NCBI GenBank assembly: GCA_937907455.1
Contig: CALESQ010000111.1
Coordinates: 21,454-85,453, forward strand
Direction of reading: 5' to 3'
DNA from: an uncultured Caldilineales bacterium
GTDB taxonomy: Bacteria > Chloroflexota > Anaerolineae > JAAEKA01
DNA: 64,000 nucleotides
In this document: one piece after another, positions 3,674 to 26,556 of the stretch
Layout: each line of letters opens with the position of its first letter
Numbering within the stretch: position 1 is the stretch's first letter
The notes under the pieces: model-generated
The model's input: only the letters and a program-made list of their open reading frames with translations
Database searches by the model: none
What the model was told of the DNA's origin: nothing
Made by a program: the position numbers and the translations under genes

Positions 3674-4026
3674 CCATCCCCACCTTCGACGAGCAAGCCA
3701 CCGCCGACCTGCTGGCCACCATCGAAAACGCCAAGACCCGCCAGGACGTGGTGCCGGCCTACGCCGCTGGCATCATGCACAAGCCCGGCCCCCGCTTCCT
3801 GCCGGCCAACGAGGCCATCACCGCCAAGTGGTCGAAGGCCGGCCTGCGCTGGATCAAGCAGCAGGCGTGGAAGATCGTGGACGCGGAGACGCTCAAGCAG
3901 TCGCGCGCCGATGCCGGCACGATCTGGGCCATCCAAGAAAACGGCCTGATCCTGGTCGAGCTGGCGGAGTGCCTGTGGCCGGTCAACGCAGAGGACATCC
4001 AGCCGGCAAAGGAGGCAACCCCATGA
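3670..4026 (+). CDS. hypothetical protein (118 aa)
   Basis: ORF track; ATGA overlap with neighbours. Confidence 0.6.
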   Translation: MTIPTFDEQATADLLATIENAKTRQDVVPAYAAGIMHKPGPRFLPANEAITAKWSKAGLRWIKQQAWKIVDAETLKQSRADAGTIWAIQENGLILVELAECLWPVNAEDIQPAKEATP

Positions 4027-4256
4027 CCGCATCAACTGGCTACCGCAAGCTGACGACCCAGTATCTGGAAACCGTAGACGGGCACGGCCACGCCAGCGCC
4101 GTTAGACTGCTCAGTGATGCCGAAGCGCTGCTGCGTGACGCGCTGGACTTGTTCAGCGGCACCCACGAACTTTGCGATGAAGTCGAGTCGCCTGAGTGGA
4201 TTTGGCGCTGGCGCGTGTTGGAGTTGCTAGATGACGCCCAGGAGGTGCAGATATGA
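4023..4256 (+). CDS. hypothetical protein (77 aa)
   Basis: ATG 4023 overlapping upstream stop; in frame with track ORF 3828..4256. Confidence 0.5.
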   Translation: MTASTGYRKLTTQYLETVDGHGHASAVRLLSDAEALLRDALDLFSGTHELCDEVESPEWIWRWRVLELLDDAQEVQI

Positions 4257-4501
4257 CCCACCCGACCGACCCCCGCGACGCCGCGATTGACGCTATACTC
4301 GCCAATCGCGGCTTGCCGTTCACAACGTACACTGATCCGTCAAGCGCCAGCCTGCAACGGCGGCTCGGTATCTCCCAGCGCGCCATCGTCAACGCCTGTA
4401 AGCGCAACGGCTGGCCCTGGCGCAAGGTCTACGGCCGCATCTGGGTGTGCGCCGACTTCGAGCAGCGCTGGGCGGAGATCACCGGAAAGGACAGCATTTA
4501 A
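4253..4501 (+). CDS. hypothetical protein (82 aa)
   Basis: ORF track; ATGA overlap. Confidence 0.6.
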   Translation: MTHPTDPRDAAIDAILANRGLPFTTYTDPSSASLQRRLGISQRAIVNACKRNGWPWRKVYGRIWVCADFEQRWAEITGKDSI

Positions 4502-4782
4502 TGCGTACCCTACCCCATAACGCCCTAGAGCTAGGCCCCCTGGCCGGCCCTTGGATCGACGCGACCGCCTTCGACGAACACCACGTGACGCTGGCCGAAT
4601 TAGATGCAGCCGCCGCTTTCCCGGCTGACTGGAGCAGGATTCTAGATGCGCGTCCTTTTACTGGCGTAACGGCTATAATTCACGATTTCGTCCGGCCCCA
4701 TGTGCGCGGCGAGGGCGACGTAATCGAGCACCAAACCATCGTCCACGCCAAGGGACTGGCCACGATCATGGCGTTCGCCTGA
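4501..4782 (+). CDS. hypothetical protein (93 aa)
   Basis: ATG 4501 overlapping TAA of upstream gene; frame of track ORF 4447..4782. Confidence 0.5.
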   Translation: MRTLPHNALELGPLAGPWIDATAFDEHHVTLAELDAAAAFPADWSRILDARPFTGVTAIIHDFVRPHVRGEGDVIEHQTIVHAKGLATIMAFA

Positions 4783-4804
4783 TGCGCGCGGTCGTAATTG
4801 ATAC

Positions 4805-4833
4805 TTGACAGTTTTTGCTTTTGGGTGTATAAT
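4805..4833 (+). promoter_or_regulatory. conserved promoter cassette copy 2
   Basis: TTGACA 4805-4810, N17, TATAAT 4828-4833, then ACTCTTGACGGCACAGAGAGG. Confidence 0.7.
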
Positions 4834-4891
4834 ACTCTTGACGGCACAGAGAGGCCACACCGGCCATCACCCACAGCAAGGAGACCAGACG

Positions 4892-5272
4892 ATGAGCAAC
4901 ACCAGCCGCAGCCTACGCCAAGAGGAAATCGACAGCTACAACCGCCAGCGCTTCATCGACCAGGTGCTGGCGGCCATCGCCAACGGGCGCAAGGTACGCT
5001 TCCTGATCCACAAGCGCAACTACAGCCTGGTCGAGGTGCAGAAACGCACCACTGGAGAGTACGAGTTTCAGGTAGCCGACCGCTCCCGCTACACCTACCG
5101 CATGAGTGACTTCATCCAGTTTCTGGAGACCATCTACGACAGCGGCGCCGAGATCATCAGCCTGACCGGCGAGGCCGAGATCACCGCCGAACGACAGACC
5201 GCCAACGCCGACGCCGAGCCGGATCACGACTACGAGATCGCCAAGCGCCAGGAGGCGCAGAAAGGAGAGTAA
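4892..5272 (+). CDS. hypothetical protein (126 aa)
   Basis: ATG 4892 after CAAGGAGACCAGAC; frame of ORF 4805..5272. Confidence 0.6.
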   Translation: MSNTSRSLRQEEIDSYNRQRFIDQVLAAIANGRKVRFLIHKRNYSLVEVQKRTTGEYEFQVADRSRYTYRMSDFIQFLETIYDSGAEIISLTGEAEITAERQTANADAEPDHDYEIAKRQEAQKGE

Positions 5273-5886: not shown

Positions 5887-6180
5887 ATGAACTGCCCCTG
5901 CTGCGGCAAGCCCATCAGTCAGAAAGACCTCAACACGCCCTACATCGACCGCCACGGGCACGCCATCAGAGGCGTCTACGAGCACAGCCGCTGCGGCGCC
6001 GTGCTGGGCCAGTGCTACAAGGGCGACGCCTACGGCATCTACATCCCCCAGTGGGCGCCGGCCGACACGCCAGCCGAGAACCAGCGCTACTTTGACCTGA
6101 CCGTGCTGGGCAGCGCCGGCATCGAGCGGGTCCACGGCTGGTTCGATATCGAGACCCGCAAGCTGACCCGGGTCGGCTGA
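5887..6180 (+). CDS. hypothetical Cys-rich protein (97 aa, CPCCG motif)
   Basis: ORF track; RBS CAAGGAGACC. Confidence 0.6.
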   Translation: MNCPCCGKPISQKDLNTPYIDRHGHAIRGVYEHSRCGAVLGQCYKGDAYGIYIPQWAPADTPAENQRYFDLTVLGSAGIERVHGWFDIETRKLTRVG

Positions 6181-6227
6181 GCACAAGGGCCGGGGACCGC
6201 AACCCGGCCCGAAGGAGGAACTACCCC

Positions 6228-6446
6228 ATGCACGACGAACAGACCTTCCCTGCCGGCACCATAGCGGAGTGCAACCGCTGCAAGCAGTTCAGCCCGTTGC
6301 CCAAGCCGTGCCTGGGCCATCTGGAGGCGCCGACATCCGAGTTTCTCTCCGCCGTCTACCGCCTGGACACCATGTGCCTGCTGGGCTGCGGCCACATGGA
6401 CGCCCACTGGGTGCTCGTTACGCCGGAGAAGGAGGCAAGCTCGTGA
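6228..6446 (+). CDS. hypothetical Cys-rich protein (72 aa)
   Basis: ORF track; RBS GAAGGAGGAA. Confidence 0.6.
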   Translation: MHDEQTFPAGTIAECNRCKQFSPLPKPCLGHLEAPTSEFLSAVYRLDTMCLLGCGHMDAHWVLVTPEKEASS

Positions 6447-6778
6447 CCGACAAGGAATACATCAGCGAGATCACCGCCGCCCTTCGGGACTGGGCGGGCA
6501 GGTGCGCCGGCGACCTGAGCGACAAGGACGCCCACGCCAGCCAGTGGCGCCAGCGCTTCCGGGAGTTCGGCTACGGCCTGGGCGACCTGCTGGCGCGCGG
6601 CAAGACGAGCGGCGCCGCCATCCGCAGCACCACCGGCTCGGCCTACTCGACCCTATACGTGGTCAACGCCTTCAACCGCCGGCCCGGCGTGGTGCTCAGC
6701 GCCGGCGACGTGGTGGGCGAGATCAACACCGGCATCGCCCAGGCCCAGGCCGACCGCACCGCCATCAAGGAGACCTGA
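6443..6778 (+). CDS. hypothetical protein (111 aa)
   Basis: GTG 6443 (GTGA overlap) after GGAGGCAAG RBS; frame of ORF 6269..6778. Confidence 0.5.
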   Translation: MTDKEYISEITAALRDWAGRCAGDLSDKDAHASQWRQRFREFGYGLGDLLARGKTSGAAIRSTTGSAYSTLYVVNAFNRRPGVVLSAGDVVGEINTGIAQAQADRTAIKET

Positions 6779-6781
6779 CCC

Positions 6782-7078
6782 ATGCCCCGCAAGCAGACCG
6801 TCCACGGCAAGCCCATCGTCCGCAAGTCCACCCACGTCCGCTACTTCTCGCAGCACCGCATCTGCCTGGAGTACCGCCCCCTGTCCAGGCCAAAGCACGA
6901 GTACGTCGCCTGGTTCATCGGCGACGACGGCAAGGAGGCCGGCTACGACGTGACCAAGAAGGTCTATGACGGCTTGCGCGTGCCTGAGACCGTCCACAAC
7001 AGCGCCAGCGACCGCCTGGAGTGGGAGCGCCTACAAAAGCGCCGGCAGCCCAGCTACAGCGGCTTTGTAAGACCTTGA
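6782..7078 (+). CDS. hypothetical protein (98 aa)
   Basis: ORF track; RBS GGAGACC. Confidence 0.6.
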   Translation: MPRKQTVHGKPIVRKSTHVRYFSQHRICLEYRPLSRPKHEYVAWFIGDDGKEAGYDVTKKVYDGLRVPETVHNSASDRLEWERLQKRRQPSYSGFVRP

Positions 7079-7090
7079 AGGAGACCACCC

Positions 7091-7324
7091 ATGCGCTGCA
7101 CCCAACGCATCCCACCGCCCGGAGCGAACGACCTGCACCCCGCCGCCAAGCCATGCACGCGGGAGGCAACCCACAAGTTGATCGCCCCTAACGGCACCCT
7201 GATCCCCGGCGGGCTGTGCCTTGAACACGGCCAGGCCGTGGTCGAGGAGTACGCCGCCAAGCTGGGCGAGACCTGGACCTTGCGGCCGGTCGATGAGCAC
7301 GGCCGGCTGGTGATCGAGGAATAA
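7091..7324 (+). CDS. hypothetical protein (77 aa)
   Basis: ORF track; RBS GAAGGAGACC. Confidence 0.6.
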   Translation: MRCTQRIPPPGANDLHPAAKPCTREATHKLIAPNGTLIPGGLCLEHGQAVVEEYAAKLGETWTLRPVDEHGRLVIEE

Positions 7325-20045: not shown

Positions 20046-20120
20046 CTTGATATATGCGCATTCCTGCATTCTCCTATTGCCTCACCACGAAGGGGATTAC
20101 ACTTTCATTTGACGAGATGT

Positions 20121-21995
20121 TTACAACACAAACCCCACGCCGCCCACCGGCCCCCGCAAATCCTGCCAGGACCAGTACGCGGCGTCAGTCAGGTCGAACG
20201 GCTTGACCTTGGGAAAACGGCGCAGCGCCTTCTCCAGGGTGACGTGGGTGCCCAGGACGTGGATGATGCGGCCCCGTTCGTAGTCGGCCAGCATCTGCTG
20301 CGCGCGATGGGCCTTGGGGCCGTGGCCGGCGCCGGCCTTGTCGGAGCGGAACGGCGGCGGGTCGCTGATCCCTAAGCCGGCGGCCGCCTCCCGATAGACG
20401 CTGGCCCAGGTGTCGCCGCCCTGGTCGGTCTCCACGCCCACCGCCTCGGCGCCCAACTCGACCGCCTTGCGGATGGCGCGCTGGAGGGCGTCCTGCGGAC
20501 TGGTGACGTGCTCCCACGAAAACAGGCGGAAGATCGTGCCGTCCGGGCCGATGCCGTCGGCCTGGATGCCCTGGCTGTCCGAGGCGTCGGTGGACGTGAC
20601 AGCCGGGTCTACCCAGACCACGATGCGCACCAGCGCCGGCAGCTCGTCCCAGGCGCAGCGCATGAACTCCAGGTGGTCGAACATGCCGCCGGCAGCCTCC
20701 TCGACCTCGTGCTGGGCCTCGTGCAGGAAGGCCGTCAAGCCCCAGGCGTCGAGCTGCTGCTGGGCGTGCTCCATGCTCTGGCCGACCCAGATCGACTGGC
20801 CGCCGGTGATGACGTAGCGCCCGCCGCGCATCTCGTAGGTCAGGTTGCGCACCGCCGGGTGGGGACCTGAGACGATGCGCTCGCGCAGGAAGTCGGCGCG
20901 GCCGTCGGCCATGCGGCTGAACAGCCCGTTGGGGATAATCAGGTTCTGGATGCCAATCACCGCCACGTCGGGCGAGCCGGCCGGCAGCAGGGACGTGGTG
21001 AGGGTGGTGATCTTCTTGGCCGTGTAGCCGGGGTTGTCCAGCTTGTTGTCCAGGTCATCCAGGCAGTTGTGGGAGAGGCCGAACGCGGTCAGGTAGGTAT
21101 GCGAGGCCGTGGTGATGGGCGCGAAGGTCCTGACGCCGGCCGGCTGGACGCTGCGCACCCGGTTCCAGAAGGCGCCGTTCAGTAGGCCGTAGCCGATCTG
21201 GTCGCCCGGCTCCAGGTCGCGCGCCTCGATCCAGCCGCCGTCTTCAACCACGTTCTTGCGCGCCCAATAGCGGTGTTCAGGCGTCACCACCTCGGCAAAC
21301 GACAGGCCGGCCACCTGCACCTCCAGGCCCTCAGCCTGGCGCAGGCCCAGCAGTCCGGGGTGCTCCTCGACCATCACCCAGCGGCCCATGTCGTAAACGG
21401 GCGTGCCGACCTCGTGGCAGATCAAGTCGGGCCGGTTCTCCTCGACTTTCGAGCCGCGGTAGGCCGTGTCGAAGCCGATGGCGTCCACCGTGAAGCCGCT
21501 GGCCGCGCGCATTCGCTCACGCCGCCAGCCGCGCGTGTTGCCGTACTTGCCCTTCTGCGGCGCGCCCAGCATGGGGTAGAACTCGGCGATGGCCGACGAC
21601 TCCAGCAGCACGGCGATGTTCTCGACCGACTTGTCGGCCAGCTCCTGGGTCTCGCGCACGTACCAGGCGTACTTGCGCACGCCGCGCGCTCCCAGGGCCA
21701 CGGTGGCCATCTCGGCGGAGGACGACTTGCCGCCGCCGCGCGGCCAAATCGCGATGAAGGCCGGCGGGCGCTGGCCCCGCTTTAGCGCCCAGACGTGATC
21801 CCAGAACTCGGCATGGTGGTCGCCGAACTCGAAGCCGACGTAGGCCGGGAACATGGCGCGCAGCCAGCCGGCCCAGTCAGCCGGCGGCGGGTCGATGCGC
21901 TGGGCGCGGCTGCGCGGGTCGATCTCGTCGGCCGCGCGCCGCAGCAGCATGTCGTAGGCCGTCCCGAACTGCGGGAGGAGGGAGGAGACCGTCAT
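20121..21995 (-). CDS. terL: terminase large subunit (ATPase plus nuclease) containing a mini-intein
   Basis: Walker A IWPRGGGKSSS; nuclease-domain similarity; 624 aa immediately downstream of the terS-like gene. Confidence 0.8.
   Translation of the reverse strand: MTVSSLLPQFGTAYDMLLRRAADEIDPRSRAQRIDPPPADWAGWLRAMFPAYVGFEFGDHHAEFWDHVWALKRGQRPPAFIAIWPRGGGKSSSAEMATVALGARGVRKYAWYVRETQELADKSVENIAVLLESSAIAEFYPMLGAPQKGKYGNTRGWRRERMRAASGFTVDAIGFDTAYRGSKVEENRPDLICHEVGTPVYDMGRWVMVEEHPGLLGLRQAEGLEVQVAGLSFAEVVTPEHRYWARKNVVEDGGWIEARDLEPGDQIGYGLLNGAFWNRVRSVQPAGVRTFAPITTASHTYLTAFGLSHNCLDDLDNKLDNPGYTAKKITTLTTSLLPAGSPDVAVIGIQNLIIPNGLFSRMADGRADFLRERIVSGPHPAVRNLTYEMRGGRYVITGGQSIWVGQSMEHAQQQLDAWGLTAFLHEAQHEVEEAAGGMFDHLEFMRCAWDELPALVRIVVWVDPAVTSTDASDSQGIQADGIGPDGTIFRLFSWEHVTSPQDALQRAIRKAVELGAEAVGVETDQGGDTWASVYREAAAGLGISDPPPFRSDKAGAGHGPKAHRAQQMLADYERGRIIHVLGTHVTLEKALRRFPKVKPFDLTDAAYWSWQDLRGPVGGVGFVL
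21066..21419 (-). other. mini-intein (Hint domain, ~118 aa, no homing endonuclease) inside terL
   Basis: starts CHEVGT (Cys1 and Thr6 of block A), block B TPEH, C-terminal block VRTFAPITTASHTYLTAFGLSHN followed by +1 Cys. Confidence 0.65.
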
Positions 21996-22624
21996 CGGCC
22001 CTCCGCGGCGATGATGCGCCGGATGCCGTCGGAGATGGCAATCAGCGCGCGCTGGTCGTCTACGTGCTCCTTGACCAACTTCGTGACCGCCATCACCAGC
22101 ACCATCGCCTGCTCAGCCGTCACCATCTGGGAAAGTTGCACCAGCCGCTTGCGCTCCGACTCCACCAGTTTGCGCCGCAGGTCCAGCATTTCGCCCACCT
22201 CGCGCCAGGCATGATACCCGGCCTGGCCCCGCCTCAGCGCGCCGCCCATCGCGTCCAGGGAGGACTTCAGGCCGGCCGCGTCGCCGGCGGCGATGGCGTC
22301 CTGGAGGGCGGCGTAGTTCTCCATCGCCTTGGCCCAGGCCGCCCCGGTCTCGCCGCTGTCCAGCTTAGAGAGCAGCTCGGCCAGGCGGGTGTCGATGATG
22401 GCGATGTCGTCGCGCATGACCAGCAGGTCGCCGTCGTTGGCCGCCCGCTCGTACTGCTCCAGCAGGCGCTTGGGCATGTAGCGGGAGTAGCGGCCGTCCT
22501 TGTACTGCGGCAAGGCCACACCCACCAAAGACTTACCACCGTGTAGCCGACACCGCCCGTTGGCCATGACTGCTGTGTTTTTGCACGGTTCTCCGCTGCG
22601 CGTCTTCGCGCCACACTGTTTCAT
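21992..22624 (-). CDS. putative terminase small subunit / DNA-binding protein with N-terminal zinc-ribbon (HGG motif)
   Basis: rc ATG 22622-22624; CGAKTRSGEPCKNTAVMANGRCRLHGGKS; directly upstream of terL. Confidence 0.55.
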   Translation of the reverse strand: MKQCGAKTRSGEPCKNTAVMANGRCRLHGGKSLVGVALPQYKDGRYSRYMPKRLLEQYERAANDGDLLVMRDDIAIIDTRLAELLSKLDSGETGAAWAKAMENYAALQDAIAAGDAAGLKSSLDAMGGALRRGQAGYHAWREVGEMLDLRRKLVESERKRLVQLSQMVTAEQAMVLVMAVTKLVKEHVDDQRALIAISDGIRRIIAAEGR

Positions 22625-22671
22625 TATGACAACCGTACATGGGGGTTTTGCGCGTGCATAGGGGTGTGCGC

Positions 22672-22863
22672 CTACGCCTGAGCCGGGCCGGCTTCGAGGA
22701 GGACGGGCGCGACGCCGGTTAGGAGGAAGAAGCGCTCCAGCGCCACAGCCACATAACCCGGCTCGATCTCCACAGCCCGGCAGCGCCGCCCCAGCCGCTC
22801 GCAGGCTATCAGGTCTTGTGCTTTTGCCAGTCTTGTGGTACAATGCCCGTATGAAACACTCAT
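22672..22863 (-). pseudogene. orphan 3'-end fragment of a DNA methyltransferase (paralog of the C-terminus of the 23490..24680 gene)
   Basis: RLGRRCRAVEIEPGYVAVALERFFLLTGVAPVLLE vs RLGRRCFGIEIDPGYCAVTLERMSGLGVTPILVE. Confidence 0.5.
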
Positions 22864-23591
22864 TGCAATGCTCTCACTGTGGCAAGGCGATTAAACGGGA
22901 AGATTACCAGATTGCCCGTAACACGACGGGGCTTTGGTTTTGCTCTTACGACTGCCAAAAGTCCTACCGCAAAGCCAACACCATTGCGCCTGAGTTGACT
23001 TGTCCGGTGTGCGGAAAACAGTTCATTGTCAAACCCTACAGGGTGAAGCAAGGAAAACAGCTTGCTTGCTCGTTGGAATGTCGCCAAGTTCTGCTTGGCT
23101 GGGGTAGCAAGCTGCTCAACTGTGAATGGTGCGGACAAGAGTTTCGCCGTCGAAATGCCCAGGTGAACGGACACAACTTTTGCAGCCGTCATTGCATGGG
23201 ACAATGGCAGTCTGAATACGTCACGGGTGAACAAAGCCCAAGTTGGCGCGGTGGCTGGCAACCTTACTATGGCAAGGATTGGAACAAGCAAAACCGCCAA
23301 GCCCGCAAGCGAGACGACCACACCTGCCAGGGGTGCGGAGTTCATCAAAGTGAAATCGCCTATACCCTCGAAGTTCATCACAAGAAACCTGTGCGCCTTT
23401 TCGACAATCCCAACGATGCCAACTCGCTGGACAATCTCGTTACGCTTTGCCGTCCGTGTCACGTCAAGATGGACGTATACGCCCGTTGGCTATTCGACAA
23501 GAATGGGCGTGACACCAAGCCCGCTCATCCTCTCCAAAGTGACAGCGCAATAGCCAGGGTCTATCTCAATACCAAAACAGCGCCGTCCTAG
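22851..23591 (+). CDS. HNH homing-type endonuclease with N-terminal multi-CxxC zinc fingers; low-GC
   Basis: HNH motif DDHTCQGCGV..EVHHKKP..NLVTLCRPCH; own TTGTGC-N17-TACAAT promoter; 3' end overlaps convergent MTase by ~100 nt. Confidence 0.8.
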   Translation: MKHSLQCSHCGKAIKREDYQIARNTTGLWFCSYDCQKSYRKANTIAPELTCPVCGKQFIVKPYRVKQGKQLACSLECRQVLLGWGSKLLNCEWCGQEFRRRNAQVNGHNFCSRHCMGQWQSEYVTGEQSPSWRGGWQPYYGKDWNKQNRQARKRDDHTCQGCGVHQSEIAYTLEVHHKKPVRLFDNPNDANSLDNLVTLCRPCHVKMDVYARWLFDKNGRDTKPAHPLQSDSAIARVYLNTKTAPS

Positions 23592-24680
23592 TCTGTGCGC
23601 TGCGACCATTGTCGTGCCGCTGCCGAGGAAGGGATCGTAAACAATGCCGCCAACGCGCTTCACAAGATCAATGACCACGGCTTGCGGCTTGACGCTGGCG
23701 TGCCATCCTTCTGTGTCAGACAACTCTTGCCCAAGCGTCGTTGGTGAATAGCAGTCGTGAGAATACGGGTGTACGTCCAACCACTCCGCTTTCCCTTTAC
23801 TGCTGGCGCGGATGGCTTCTGAAGTCAGAAGCCATCCGCGCCAGGGGAAAGTCTCATCATTCGGCTTGTACATCCACAACAGCCGCTCAGGATGCCAGCC
23901 CGCCGCCCGCGTTGCGTCAAGCCACACCCATTCAAGCCGTGGTGACTGAAACGCAATCAGCACGCCGTCGTCAATCGGCATCGCAGCAAGGCACCCATCG
24001 AACAGCGCCCGCAGCCCTTCGGGATCGTCGTTTGTGATGCCCTCCCGATTGATGCCGTAGGGCGGATCAGTCACGCAACACCCTGCCTTCTCCCCGCCCA
24101 TCACTCGTGCCACCACCGCCGCGTCCGCGCAGTCGCCGCAGATCAGCCGGTGCTCGCCCAACTGCCACAGTTGCCCCGTGGCCGTTGACCACTTGGCTTG
24201 CAACTCCGCCGCCCGATTTACCTGCCCGCTGTCGTCCTCGCCGGCCGGCGCCTTGAGGCTGCGCAGCAACTCCTTCAGCCGCGCGTCCCCGCCAGCCGCC
24301 ACCGCCGCCAGCTCCTCGTCGGTCTCCTTGAGCTTCGCCACCAGCGCCGCCAGCCTGGCCAGGTCGGGGCTGGAGCCGCGCGCGGTCTCGTTGTCGGCGG
24401 CCATGTAGGCGACGACCTTCTCCGCCGTCCAGTCGGGCGGGATCACGTCGGCCTTGACCTCGGTCTTGCCTTCGGCCTGGGCCGCCTCGATAAAGCCGTG
24501 GCCGGCGACGCCGACGAAGCCGCCCTGGCCGTCGTCCAGCACCACGACGGAGCGAACCTGGCCGAACAGCCGGACCGACCGGCGTAGGTCGGCGATTTGC
24601 TCGTCCGGGTGCTCGTTGTAGTTGTCCGGGCTGGCCCGGTAGCGGTCGAGGGAGATGATGCGGTTGACGACTTCTGACAC
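23490..24680 (-). CDS. ParB-like nuclease domain fused to N4/N6 DNA methyltransferase (beta-class: DPPY then FLGSGTT)
   Basis: VTDPPYG motif IV; DPFLGSGTT motif I; N-terminal ParB-like region. Confidence 0.8.
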   Translation of the reverse strand: MSEVVNRIISLDRYRASPDNYNEHPDEQIADLRRSVRLFGQVRSVVVLDDGQGGFVGVAGHGFIEAAQAEGKTEVKADVIPPDWTAEKVVAYMAADNETARGSSPDLARLAALVAKLKETDEELAAVAAGGDARLKELLRSLKAPAGEDDSGQVNRAAELQAKWSTATGQLWQLGEHRLICGDCADAAVVARVMGGEKAGCCVTDPPYGINREGITNDDPEGLRALFDGCLAAMPIDDGVLIAFQSPRLEWVWLDATRAAGWHPERLLWMYKPNDETFPWRGWLLTSEAIRASSKGKAEWLDVHPYSHDCYSPTTLGQELSDTEGWHASVKPQAVVIDLVKRVGGIVYDPFLGSGTTMVAAHRLGRRCFGIEIDPGYCAVTLERMSGLGVTPILVE

Positions 24681-24694
24681 AGCGTTACTCCAGA

Positions 24695-24724
24695 CTTGAC
24701 AGCTTTTGCTTTTGGGTGTATAAT
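24695..24724 (+). promoter_or_regulatory. conserved promoter cassette copy 4
   Basis: TTGACA 24695-24700, TATAAT 24719-24724. Confidence 0.65.
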
Positions 24725-24748
24725 TCCCTTAGCAGTAGAGAACAAACC

Positions 24749-24771
24749 AAATCCGCAAATTTTGCGGATTT
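24749..24771. promoter_or_regulatory. palindromic operator-like site copy 3
   Basis: aaatccgcaaattttgcggattt upstream of parB-like RBS. Confidence 0.6.
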
Positions 24772-24793
24772 GCCCAGCAAGGAGGCACGACCC

Positions 24794-25693
24794 ATGACCG
24801 GCGAGCGCACCATCCAGCTAATCGACATGCAGCAGATCGTCCCTGGCGACAACGGCACCGGCCACCAAGATCGCACCGTCTTTGACCCGGCCGGCTTGGC
24901 CGAGTTAGCCGGCTCGATCCAGCAGCACGGCCTCTTGCAGCCCATCACCGTCCGGCCTATCGGCGAAAGCGACCTCTACCGCATCGTCGCCGGCGAGCGC
25001 CGCTTCCGGGCCTGCGAGCTGCTGGGCTGGCTGGAAATCCCGGCCATCGTGGCCGACGTGACCGCCGACGAGGCCGCGGCCCTGATGCTGGCCGAGAACA
25101 CGAGCCGGGAAGACCTCAACCCGGTGGACGAGGCCAACGCCTACCAGGTGCGCATCGAGCGCTTGGGCTGGACGGTGGCCGACTGCGCCAGAGCTGCCGG
25201 CGTGTCCGAGGCCCGTGTCTTGTTCCGGCTCAAGCTGCTCAAGCTGCGGCCCGACCTGCTGGACCTGGTGCGCACGGGCAACCTACCGCTGGGCTATGCG
25301 CAGATCATCGCCGACGGCAACCTGGACGTGAACCGCCAGCTCCTGGCCCTGCGGGCGCTGCGCAACAACCCGTCGCCTACGCCCGGTTGGTTCCGCCGCC
25401 AGGTGGGCGAGTTGCTGACCCAGCAGGCCCAGGCCAGCATGTTCGACGACGGGCCGCTGTTCGGCGGGCTGGACTTCGACGAGCCGGCCCAGCACGCCAC
25501 GCCCATCGAACCGCCCACGCCGGCCACGGTCGCGCCGCCGGCAGTAGGGCAGACGCCCAGGGAGATCGTCGCCGGCCAGATAGGCTTCTGGGAACAGGCC
25601 GCCGACGCTTGGGCTGATCTGGGCAAGCCGTTCAAGCGCCAAGAGTGTAAGGCGGCAGCCCAAGCGCTGGGGTTCCTGTTTGCCACGCTCTGA
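24794..25693 (+). CDS. ParB/Sulfiredoxin-domain protein (ParB-like nuclease/partition protein)
   Basis: ATG 24794 after CAAGGAGGCACGACC; ParB N-domain motifs LQPITVRP..YRIVAGERRFRA. Confidence 0.75.
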   Translation: MTGERTIQLIDMQQIVPGDNGTGHQDRTVFDPAGLAELAGSIQQHGLLQPITVRPIGESDLYRIVAGERRFRACELLGWLEIPAIVADVTADEAAALMLAENTSREDLNPVDEANAYQVRIERLGWTVADCARAAGVSEARVLFRLKLLKLRPDLLDLVRTGNLPLGYAQIIADGNLDVNRQLLALRALRNNPSPTPGWFRRQVGELLTQQAQASMFDDGPLFGGLDFDEPAQHATPIEPPTPATVAPPAVGQTPREIVAGQIGFWEQAADAWADLGKPFKRQECKAAAQALGFLFATL

Positions 25694-25841
25694 GCGCCGC
25701 TTGGGCGACCAGCGCGCCGCTGCCAGCGCACGGCTCCAGCAACACCGCGCCGGGGACGTGGGTCGGCGTGAAGAACAAGCCGCGAGCTGGGGGGGTGTAG
25801 CCGCCAGCGCCTGCTCCAACAGTTGACCGAGAGCGGTGGGA

Positions 25842-26072
25842 TCAAGGGGCATTCTGCGTTTCCTCTCTCGCCATCTGCCTGGCCTGGGCTGGCGTCTTGC
25901 CGCTGTATTCGCAGCGCCCAAAACCATTGGTGTGTTCCACGTAGCGGCCGCGTCGCAGCATGACGCGCGCGCTGCATAGGCAGAACGTCTCCACCGCAGC
26001 AGCCGGCAGGTGGCCGGCCTGGACCGCCAGCCTGTGAGTAGCAGGGTTGCGGGTGTAGATCATATTAGGCAT
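25842..26072 (-). CDS. small Cys-containing hypothetical protein (76 aa)
   Basis: ORF track; weak. Confidence 0.3.
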   Translation of the reverse strand: MPNMIYTRNPATHRLAVQAGHLPAAAVETFCLCSARVMLRRGRYVEHTNGFGRCEYSGKTPAQARQMAREETQNAP

Positions 26073-26556
26073 GACAACCCTCGCCGATGCCGACCAGCGC
26101 CGCGCCGCCGTCGGTCAGAGGATCGCCCGCTGGCACAACGCAGCACCGGCACTGACCCAATGATGCCAGCGTCGCCTCGTAGCCCGCCGGCTCAGGCGCG
26201 GTCGACGCGATACGGATCACCACGCGCGGGGCGGCCTTGTCCAGCGCCGTCACGGTGCGCACGCTCAGGACGTGCTGCTGGTCATCGTCAACCAGCAGCC
26301 AGCCCTTCAACGCGTCGATGTACAGCTTGCCGGGGATGTTGTCCGCGTCCAGGGGGCGGCTGGCGAAGAAGACCGTGATCGTCACGTCCACCGGCACAGC
26401 GAACGGCTCCACCGCGTCCGGGTCGATCTGCTCCCGCACTGCCAGGCGTATGCGCTCGACCTCGGCTTTGCGCTGCGTCCAATGCTGGCCAGCGTAGGCT
26501 TTGTTCCAACTGAGTGGCCTTTCGCTGGGGAGGGTGAGGGTGACGGTGTTACTCAT
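26065..26556 (-). CDS. rusA: RusA-family Holliday junction resolvase
   Basis: rc ATG 26554-26556; motifs DADNIPGKLYIDALKGWLLVDDDQQH (DxDN / DDxQ). Confidence 0.7.
   Translation of the reverse strand: MSNTVTLTLPSERPLSWNKAYAGQHWTQRKAEVERIRLAVREQIDPDAVEPFAVPVDVTITVFFASRPLDADNIPGKLYIDALKGWLLVDDDQQHVLSVRTVTALDKAAPRVVIRIASTAPEPAGYEATLASLGQCRCCVVPAGDPLTDGGAALVGIGEGCHA

Follow-up and report, generated by a model that had tools for sequence, protein, structure and literature searches.

The window analysed here comprises 64,000 nt of contig CALESQ010000111.1 (assembly GCA_937907455.1, positions 21,454-85,453 of the forward strand) from an uncultured Caldilineales bacterium (Chloroflexota; Anaerolineae; JAAEKA01), and positions given below are window coordinates unless another sequence is named. 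The region of interest contains a gene for a DNA methyltransferase with a ParB-like N-terminus, a gene for an HNH endonuclease on the opposite strand that runs into the methyltransferase 3' end, an orphan open reading frame (ORF) homologous to that same 3' end, a terS-like gene and terL (Table 1). Comparison with relatives, whose contigs and gene contexts are denoted by L and P numbers, makes it very probable that a free-standing HNH homing-endonuclease cassette of ~0.8 kb, equipped with a portable gene end, has invaded the 3' end of a phage methyltransferase gene.

The methyltransferase matches PF01555 (N6_N4_Mtase, E 6e-16) and phrog_498 (E 3e-60), and a single ORF holds motif IV (DPPY) at aa 205, motif I (DPFLGSGTT) at aa 349 and then motifs II-III, which is the architecture of an intact beta-class N6/N4 enzyme of the PF01555 type. 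Its terminal segment, referred to below as the substitute tail, aligns with native methyltransferase tails up to the stop codon, and judged from the translation the protein appears complete in motifs IV, I, II and III and is presumably active. Regarding the nuclease, the frame is open from 22818, upstream of a homologue-supported ATG, and the protein matches PF01844 (E 2.9e-9, above the gathering score) and phrog_1271 (E 1.6e-33). It has the catalytic motif and the CxxC ligands of the HNH superfamily (CQGC...EVHHKKPV...N...N...CRPCH, core aa 159-204), preceded by three CxxC...C..C zinc-ribbon modules (aa 7-125), a region that gives weak TRASH/zf-FCS matches. GC content is 0.53 in the cassette, 0.71 in the orphan and 0.64 over the whole window.

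Table 1. Features of the methyltransferase-terminase region of the window, ordered by position.
Feature	Position	Strand	Length	Remarks
terL	20121-21995	-		phrog_38
terS-like gene	21992-22624	-		homologues in L001-L003 and L089
Orphaned native methyltransferase tail	22672-22812	-		LIACERLGRRCRAVEIEPGYVAVALERFFLLTGVAPVLLEAGPAQA followed by the stop codon; motifs II-III, without motif I
Orphan ORF	22672-22863	-	63 aa	
Tract common to the window and the L020 cassette	22760-23642		883 nt	94.1% identical
Net insertion relative to the HNH-free allele	22813-23610		798 bp	
Cassette-private upstream DNA, candidate HNH promoter	22813-22850	+	38 nt	
HNH endonuclease gene	22851-23591	+	246 aa	PF01844, phrog_1271; from the homologue-supported ATG to the end of the stop codon
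Convergent coding overlap	23490-23591	both	102 nt	
Imported replacement 3' end	23490-23639	-		motif I, 39 codons (MVAAHRLGRRCFGIEIDPGYCAVTLERMSGLGVTPILVE) and stop codon
Methyltransferase gene, apparently chimeric	23490-24680	-	396 aa	ParB-like N-terminus, N6/N4 catalytic domain

An allele without the HNH gene is found on an IMG/VR metagenome contig, L005. Window positions 24078-23611 correspond to L005 1-468 at 94.7% identity and positions 22812-22733 to L005 470-549 at 87.8%, a single base separating in L005 the two blocks that flank the insertion in the window. The L005 methyltransferase is intact and its C-terminus, GSGTT/LIACERLGRR..VEIEPGYVAVALER... (here and below the slash marks the insertion point), is the orphan sequence, the gene end ...VYEPFSGSGTT LIACERLGRRARCVEIEPGYVAVALERW... 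having that sequence joined straight to motif I. The empty-site sequence reads ...GGCACGACG/CTGATTGCCTGCGAGCGGCTGGG... and the L005-type empty site ...TTCAGCGGTTCCGGCACGACG/CTGATTGCCTGCGAGCGGCTGGGCCGG..., and the insertion point is the codon boundary right after motif I (GSGTT/LIAC). Presence/absence polymorphism at one precise site, as is characteristic of homing endonuclease genes (HEGs), is seen both between the window and L005 and between a second cassette-bearing contig, L043, and its empty relatives.

The same cassette occupies other methyltransferase genes. In L020, the tract common to both sequences (window 23642-22760, L020 2151-3033) lies in the same place and the same orientation and encodes an HNH protein 95.5% identical to that of the window, while the remaining parts of the two methyltransferase genes are unrelated save for one 81%-identical patch. 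The cassette is also present in L085, a relative of the L020 phage, and an HNH protein 91% identical to that of the window is linked to a third methyltransferase body in L093; the window protein is likewise 91% identical to P0001. Across these three hosts (window, L020, L093), identity is 24-53% in the 110 aa ahead of motif I, 91-96% in the HNH proteins and 85-95% in the substitute tails, the inner tail of the window being 95% identical in protein to that of L020. A near-identical element in divergent host genes is the mark of horizontal spread of an HEG. HNH identity follows tail identity (Spearman 0.56) and not body identity (-0.18), and the GC content of the cassette is lower than that of its host in 6 of 6 hosts examined. 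In a clustering of 52 tails extracted by sequence pattern, the cassette-linked tails form a cluster of their own together with native tails of L004, and the orphans cluster with ordinary native tails. In L004 itself, two tandem ParB-like methyltransferase paralogues (3814-5070 and 5998-7284) have cassette-type tails (IIAAHRTGRRCYGCEIS..) and no HNH gene follows the first of them; L004 may belong to the lineage from which the portable tail came, or its tails may be the scar of a lost HNH gene.

A three-way alignment of the window, L005 and L020 locates the boundaries. On the upstream side the window tracks L005 through ...GGCGGCATTGTT; from TAC GAT CCC TTC CTC GGC AGC GGC ACG ACA on, it agrees with L020 at 29 of 30 positions and with L005 at 21 of 30, which places the upstream crossover at 23640-23637 and makes motif I part of the import. 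Mismatches between the window and L005 are bunched at this end, 8 of the 25 falling in the last 27 nt. The imported tail is of the MVAAHRLGRRCFG type, its native counterpart is the LIACERLGRR segment, and substitute and native sequences match at only 6 of 15 nt right after the junction. On the downstream side the cassette-private DNA ends at 22813. Over the next ~50 nt (LIACERLGRRCRAVEIEP, 22812-22762) the window matches L020 at 48 of 53 positions and L005 at 41 of 53, the same peptide being present also in native tails, and past ~22760 it resembles L005 again, unlike L020, so that the alignment sets the downstream crossover at ~22772-22760. On this evidence the methyltransferase body (23640-24680) is native and the final 48 codons are imported, and the island comprises 22813-23639 together with a possibly co-converted flank to ~22762.

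The terS-like gene starts 47 nt downstream of the orphan stop codon and has an equivalent position in L020, L043 and L089; the ancestral order appears to have been the methyltransferase directly followed by terS. The low-GC stretch extends to ~23900, beyond the cassette. Its part within 23643-24078 (GC 0.59) is shared with the HNH-free L005 and is thus native to the methyltransferase lineage and outside the island. The original prediction had placed the HNH gene in a low-GC island of ~22850-24000, which is right as to the gene and was drawn ~400 nt too long at the methyltransferase side, as L005 shows. It had read the locus as a homing-type insertion that imported a substitute C-terminus including motif I and left the ancestral 3' end as a remnant, and the comparison with an HNH-free relative that it proposed as a check maps both junctions and agrees with that reading: the insert is clean, motif I goes with L020, the same cassette sits in unrelated methyltransferase bodies and the intact L005 gene ends with the orphan sequence. 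The homologues of the orphan proved to be the 3' ends of intact methyltransferases and not part of an independent gene.

The cassette boundaries have no terminal inverted or direct repeats and no target-site duplication, and no Rfam match was obtained at E <= 1 in 22000-25000. An insertion sequence or transposon was rejected on the lack of terminal repeats and target-site duplication, an intron on the lack of an Rfam match and because the host ORF ends at its own stop codon, and an intein because the nuclease is encoded antisense to the host ORF. One 14-nt sequence recurs at 22554-22567 and 23480-23493, which is close to chance level, and it lies where the HNH gene encodes the conserved ARWLF residues. 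Across 46 empty alleles, DNA conservation peaks in a 24-nt stretch centred on the junction after motif I; these alleles were chosen by motif pattern, a choice that inflates conservation at the junction codons.

Regarding the orphan, the resemblance to the methyltransferase C-terminus on which the original prediction relied extends over 46 residues, with a BLOSUM62 local score of 114 against 27.3 +/- 4.3 (maximum 55) in 2000 shuffles, and the orphan on its own matches the phrog_498 DNA-methyltransferase profile at the corresponding positions (E 2.5e-7). The two tails are 51% identical in DNA and agree at 10 of 37 third positions, which argues for old, diverged homologues and not for a recent local duplication; a simple local DNA alignment of orphan and methyltransferase returned a spurious GC-rich match, the homology being visible only at the protein/codon level. 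The orphan ORF owes its first 17 codons, with the ATG, to cassette DNA that is joined in frame to the native tail, the first four of these codons being antisense to the HNH 5' end and the others to the promoter region. As a separate observation, the last 20 residues of the orphan (ERFFLLTGVAPVLLE; 22672-22740) resemble the substitute tails of a second HNH lineage described below (for example L138, ERYFQHTGVQPVLLES) at least as well as native tails, and the window orphan pairs with the L043 tail in the tail tree. This pattern in the distal orphan is a weak hint of a previous invasion that has since lost its HNH gene.

The convergent overlap, originally put at ~100 nt and now measured exactly, sets the HNH 3' end (33 codons and the stop codon) antisense to the end of the substitute tail (33 codons and its own stop codon), an arrangement that renders the nuclease gene and the substitute tail inseparable by recombination. 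The candidate promoter ahead of the HNH gene consists of a -35 box TTGTGC (22816-22821), a 17-nt spacer, an extended -10 TG (22836-22837) and a -10 box TACAAT (22839-22844). Since the -10 box ends only 6 nt ahead of the ATG, the HNH mRNA is likely leaderless. Among 12 readable cassette copies, 10, from both HNH lineages, have a -10-like hexamer 6-7 nt ahead of the ATG, several of them with good -35 boxes, and the other two have TATAAT followed by a Shine-Dalgarno leader; in L043 and L138 the box is TGgTATAAT or TGgTACAAT, 6-7 nt before the ATG. The earlier claim of an own promoter therefore gains from the positional conservation of the -10 box in diverged cassettes and loses from a generic consensus promoter scan, which missed this promoter, its -35 box matching the consensus at 3 of 6 positions; it stays at the level of a likely prediction. 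Transcription of the methyltransferase and terS would cross the HNH gene antisense and may hold its expression down.

Among 5.8 billion proteins searched, 56 were related to the HNH protein at E <= 1e-10, and eight further contexts with HNH identities of 50-79% were examined, the DNA being read for seven of them. Megablast of 20100-26100 against GenBank phages gave nothing, GenBank phage matches at the protein level were all below 60% identity and held no junction information, a scan of genome-collection contigs with the HNH protein gave no confirmed relative, and the back-translated native tail specific to the window (ERFFLLTGVAPVLLE) was not found in a metagenome scan. In all eight contexts the HNH gene runs convergently into the 3' end of a neighbouring minus-strand gene and overlaps it, and the overlap measures 66-174 nt in 10 of 10 copies of the window's HNH lineage. 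The overlapped gene carries a PF01555 match in P0010, L087 and L088, and in L089-L092 methyltransferase motif I and/or the tail was read from the translation. Orphans are present at the equivalent junction, right after GSGTT, in L088, L090 and L092; L091 has a 7-codon orphan relic, and L087 and L089 show no orphan. The HNH gene of L089 (3500-3934), directly followed by a terS homologue, is shortened to 144 aa with only a fragment of the zinc-ribbon region left, and this truncation together with the missing orphans corresponds to the decay phase expected of a selfish nuclease.

A second HNH lineage, 33% identical to that of the window, shows the same design ~22 codons further 3' in L043, L138, L140 and L156. 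It has its own, shorter substitute tail (..ER[FY].Q.TG..PVL), and short orphans (...ERW..TGK.PVL) are present in the same four contigs. In L043 a 709-bp insert is bracketed by the empty-site relatives L064, L053 and L075. The L043 copy lies at 4371-5079 of that contig, and the second lineage is listed also in L152.

These features suggest a route of invasion. In methyltransferase orientation, the mobile unit would consist of motif I (~30 nt), the substitute tail, the antisense HNH gene and the 38-nt promoter, with motif I acting as the upstream homology arm and the first ~50 nt of the displaced tail (likely 22812-~22762 of the orphan) as the downstream arm; in empty alleles the two arms would be contiguous. 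During co-infection, the HNH enzyme would cut or nick HNH-free alleles at or near motif I / LIACE, repair templated by an occupied allele would carry over all that lies between the arms, namely substitute tail, HNH gene and promoter, and the native tail would be displaced downstream and persist as the orphan. Immunity of the occupied allele would follow from the split target and from the deviating DNA sequence of the substitute tail, a divergence that should also discourage deletion between the two tails. As the methyltransferase stays intact, the insertion would cost the phage little.

Several points weigh against the invasion by a homing cassette as set out here. L005, the sole close allele with an empty site, comes from a partial metagenomic contig and has another downstream neighbour, and an HNH-free sibling of the window phage with terS downstream was not found among GenBank phages or metagenomes. 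With homology arms of only ~30 and ~50 nt, transfer between very different methyltransferases needs short-homology repair, which is plausible for phages, and over 22812-~22762 co-conversion and plain conservation appear to fit the alignment equally well. Cleavage, its site and the immunity of occupied alleles are steps that we infer. Several cassette copies adjoin terminase genes, which leaves room for a packaging-related role, and in several lineages the orphan has kept an open frame and an in-frame ATG, although pure debris needs neither.

Packaging is the field from which one alternative comes, namely that the HNH protein is a domesticated terminase packaging factor whose position beside terS and terL is functional. 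Terminase-associated HNH proteins of this kind were reportedly described for HK97-like cos phages by Kala et al. in 2014 and Moodley et al. in 2012. Like them, the cassette nuclease is encoded beside terS and terL: the gene directly precedes terS-terL in the window and L020 and a terS-like gene in L043, L089 and L091, and the P0010 contig has a gene for the large terminase subunit close by. Its PHROG matches also include phrog_4581, annotated as terminase small subunit (E 4e-9), and it has a weak PDB match to the GVE2 phage HNH protein (5h0m, E 0.007). The HK97-like proteins, however, are small, co-oriented with the packaging genes and conserved in the packaging module, whereas the cassette protein has 246 aa with three zinc ribbons, is encoded on the strand opposite to terS and terL, is embedded in the methyltransferase end and is missing from the closest allele. 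It moves with the methyltransferase tail and not with the terminase, since the window and L020 terL proteins align only over ~160 residues at 29% identity while their HNH proteins are 95.5% identical, and both strand and terL divergence set it apart from the HK97 gp74-like group. In L087 the called neighbours are a DUF5131 gene and another HNH gene, with no terminase match among them (genes at the contig ends left out), HNH relatives are present in several copies per genome in haloviruses, and the truncated L089 copy also speaks against a packaging function, which is accordingly considered quite improbable.

A defence role fares worse still. A convergent nuclease/methyltransferase pair is a common restriction-modification layout, and that layout is present here, so that methylation might guard the DNA from the nuclease; yet HNH proteins 91-96% identical are paired with methyltransferase bodies only 24-53% identical, which makes a matched specificity implausible, a near-identical methyltransferase exists in L005 without the HNH gene, and only the tail with the AdoMet-binding motifs I-III travels with the nuclease. 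The pair thus lacks the co-inheritance and matched specificity of type II restriction-modification systems, and this explanation is highly improbable. Barely credible is a local tandem duplication of the methyltransferase 3' end followed by divergence, with an unrelated HNH gene landing between the copies later. Two homologous tails in the same orientation do flank the insert, but their DNA identity of 51% compares with 94.7% between the flanking body and L005, the inner tail belongs to the 94% DNA tract shared with L020, whose methyltransferase body is unrelated, and the inner tails of all cassettes cluster together, apart from the orphans.

A further proposal, compatible with invasion by a homing cassette, is that the orphan is a working part, translated from the cassette ATG as a small protein or for coupling to terS. 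The orphan ORF is open in the window, L020, L085, L088, L090 and L092, and three diverged cassette lineages have an in-frame ATG shortly before the junction, at positions that are not homologous (MSVSYGHC.., MLE.., MKNISQT..). The orphan stop codon overlaps the terS-like start in L020 and L085 (ATGGCAAGTAG; L020 2930-3121 / 3111), and in L088 the stop of the orphan (643-771) abuts, at coordinate 643, the start of an unannotated 146-aa gene (203-643). These features suggest, on thin evidence, that the orphan may still be translated. Against this, the window orphan stops 47 nt from the terS start, which leaves no coupling there, the orphan is absent in L087 and L089 and down to 7 codons in L091, it has no motif I and cannot be a methyltransferase, and short ORFs in formerly coding high-GC DNA stay open for long by chance. 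Selection on the orphan, as suggested by a dN/dS of ~0.12 between L020 and L085 (14 synonymous and 7 non-synonymous differences; pS 0.40, pN 0.07), was discounted as the differences are clustered in one patch, which fits gene conversion from functional alleles and not selection in place. A functional orphan is therefore regarded as rather unlikely. Somewhat less doubtful, as a tentative possibility, is the broader idea of a dedicated phage class of gene-end-swapping cassettes with their own arms, a leaderless promoter and an orphan start codon for terS coupling, the orphan being functional. If this were true, the orphan would be a component of the element and not a scar, and such cassettes would be a third general way, beside introns and inteins, for a nuclease to reside inside a coding sequence at no cost.

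Among known systems, the homing cassette most resembles the mORF gene hybrids of mitochondria, reported for atp6 of Allomyces macrogynus and for atp6, atp9, cox2 and nad3 of Glomus sp. (PMC3630166). In both, a foreign C-terminal segment completes the host gene, an endonuclease ORF is present and the native C-terminus lies downstream (PMC3630166). The native copy is 87.8% identical to the insert-free relative here and 91-98% in Glomus, and the two copies within one genome are 51% identical here and 64-81% in Glomus (PMC3630166). The host differs, a bacteriophage instead of an organelle, as does the nuclease, an HNH protein with zinc ribbons instead of a LAGLIDADG or GIY-YIG enzyme (PMC3630166). 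Moreover, the cassette nuclease gene lies on the opposite strand, with a tail overlap of ~100 nt and its own, probably leaderless, promoter, whereas the mORFs lie within the host transcript in all four genes and in phase in two (PMC3630166). The cassette works like an mORF hybrid and is not a member of that group.

Free-standing phage HEGs such as the T4 Seg and Mob enzymes spread by intronless homing (PMC2988022, PMC2790892), and in HEG islands of the ICP1 type small fragments homologous to full-length cargo genes have been proposed as recombination substrates (Barth et al., PMC10055350). As in these phage HEGs, the cassette nuclease is placed by or in a conserved gene, is polymorphic in presence and absence and moves along with its flanks. 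The classical T4 elements are intergenic or split a gene, whereas the cassette lies inside a coding sequence and keeps the gene in a single piece by a complete substitute end; its target is a non-essential DNA methyltransferase, entered at the AdoMet-binding motif I. With introns and inteins it shares a nuclease that occupies a conserved coding site in a host gene that survives, the gene being restored by end substitution in the one case and by splicing in the other. The literature searched described neither a cassette at the 3' end of phage ParB-like methyltransferase genes nor an antisense-interlocked leaderless arrangement. The element is a known design in a new variant, gene-end replacement being documented mainly in fungal mitochondria and here in a phage.

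Such a cassette would mean that a phage homing endonuclease, given a substitute gene end, needs neither intron nor intein to colonise the inside of a coding sequence. As an experimental system it offers junctions mapped to the nucleotide, an allele with the site empty, no fewer than three independent host genes and a convergent second lineage of the nuclease, which allows study of how the target is recognised, how short-homology repair proceeds and what selfish elements cost. It accounts for small orphan ORFs and odd GC dips where methyltransferase and terminase genes meet in phage genomes, and thereby advises caution against calling such orphans genes. Phage methyltransferases can on this account be natural chimeras in their AdoMet-binding motifs, which matters for phylogeny and for the prediction of methylation, and the compact unit of 0.8 kb with nuclease, arms and promoter is a candidate scaffold for phage genome engineering.

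Outside the cassette, several features of the neighbouring genes were observed. The methyltransferase body is itself a mosaic of a central/TRD module (23643-24078, GC 0.59), 94.7% identical to L005 and conserved at the protein level in L004, and a ParB-like N-terminal part (24079-24680, GC 0.70); the 81%-identical patch, 24251-24049, is all that L020 shares with the N-terminal and central region of the window gene. Within the methyltransferase coding sequence and outside the cassette lies a perfect 42-nt palindrome (23803-23844, minus strand) with 20-bp arms and a 2-nt spacer, encoding PWRGWLLTSEAIRAS, which as RNA folds at -46 kcal/mol (z-score -9.3). Of 16 distinct homologous methyltransferase modules, 14 retain the dyad, and its compensatory changes pair amino-acid substitutions (Leu->Ile with Ala->Ser; Leu->Gln with a silent Ser change). 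Pairing holds in 84% of cells as compared with 33-51% for slid partners, and the covariation score exceeds those of all 500 shuffles. Possible interpretations of the palindrome are an RNA hairpin and a protein-binding site of dyad symmetry, used for instance by the ParB-like domain or in packaging.

In the interval between the divergent methyltransferase and ParB genes, a perfect sigma-70 consensus promoter (TTGACA-17 nt-TATAAT, 12/12) is present on the plus strand at 24696-24724. It is followed, ahead of the likely ParB start, by a 25-nt hairpin at 24748-24772 (11-bp stem, 3-nt loop; CAAATCCGCAAAATTTGCGGATTTG) that may be an operator or a parS-like site.

On the terminase side, terL probably contains a mini-intein of 118 aa (aa 193-310; 21066-21419, minus strand) in the Walker B region (RPDLI/CHEVG...LSHN/CLDDLD, the slashes here marking its ends). 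This candidate has no Pfam match; its first residue is Cys, it ends in His-Asn and the following residue is Cys, and the terL homologue of L003 is uninterrupted (RPDVMIFDDID). With this likely mini-intein and the HNH cassette, the packaging module would hold two selfish elements.

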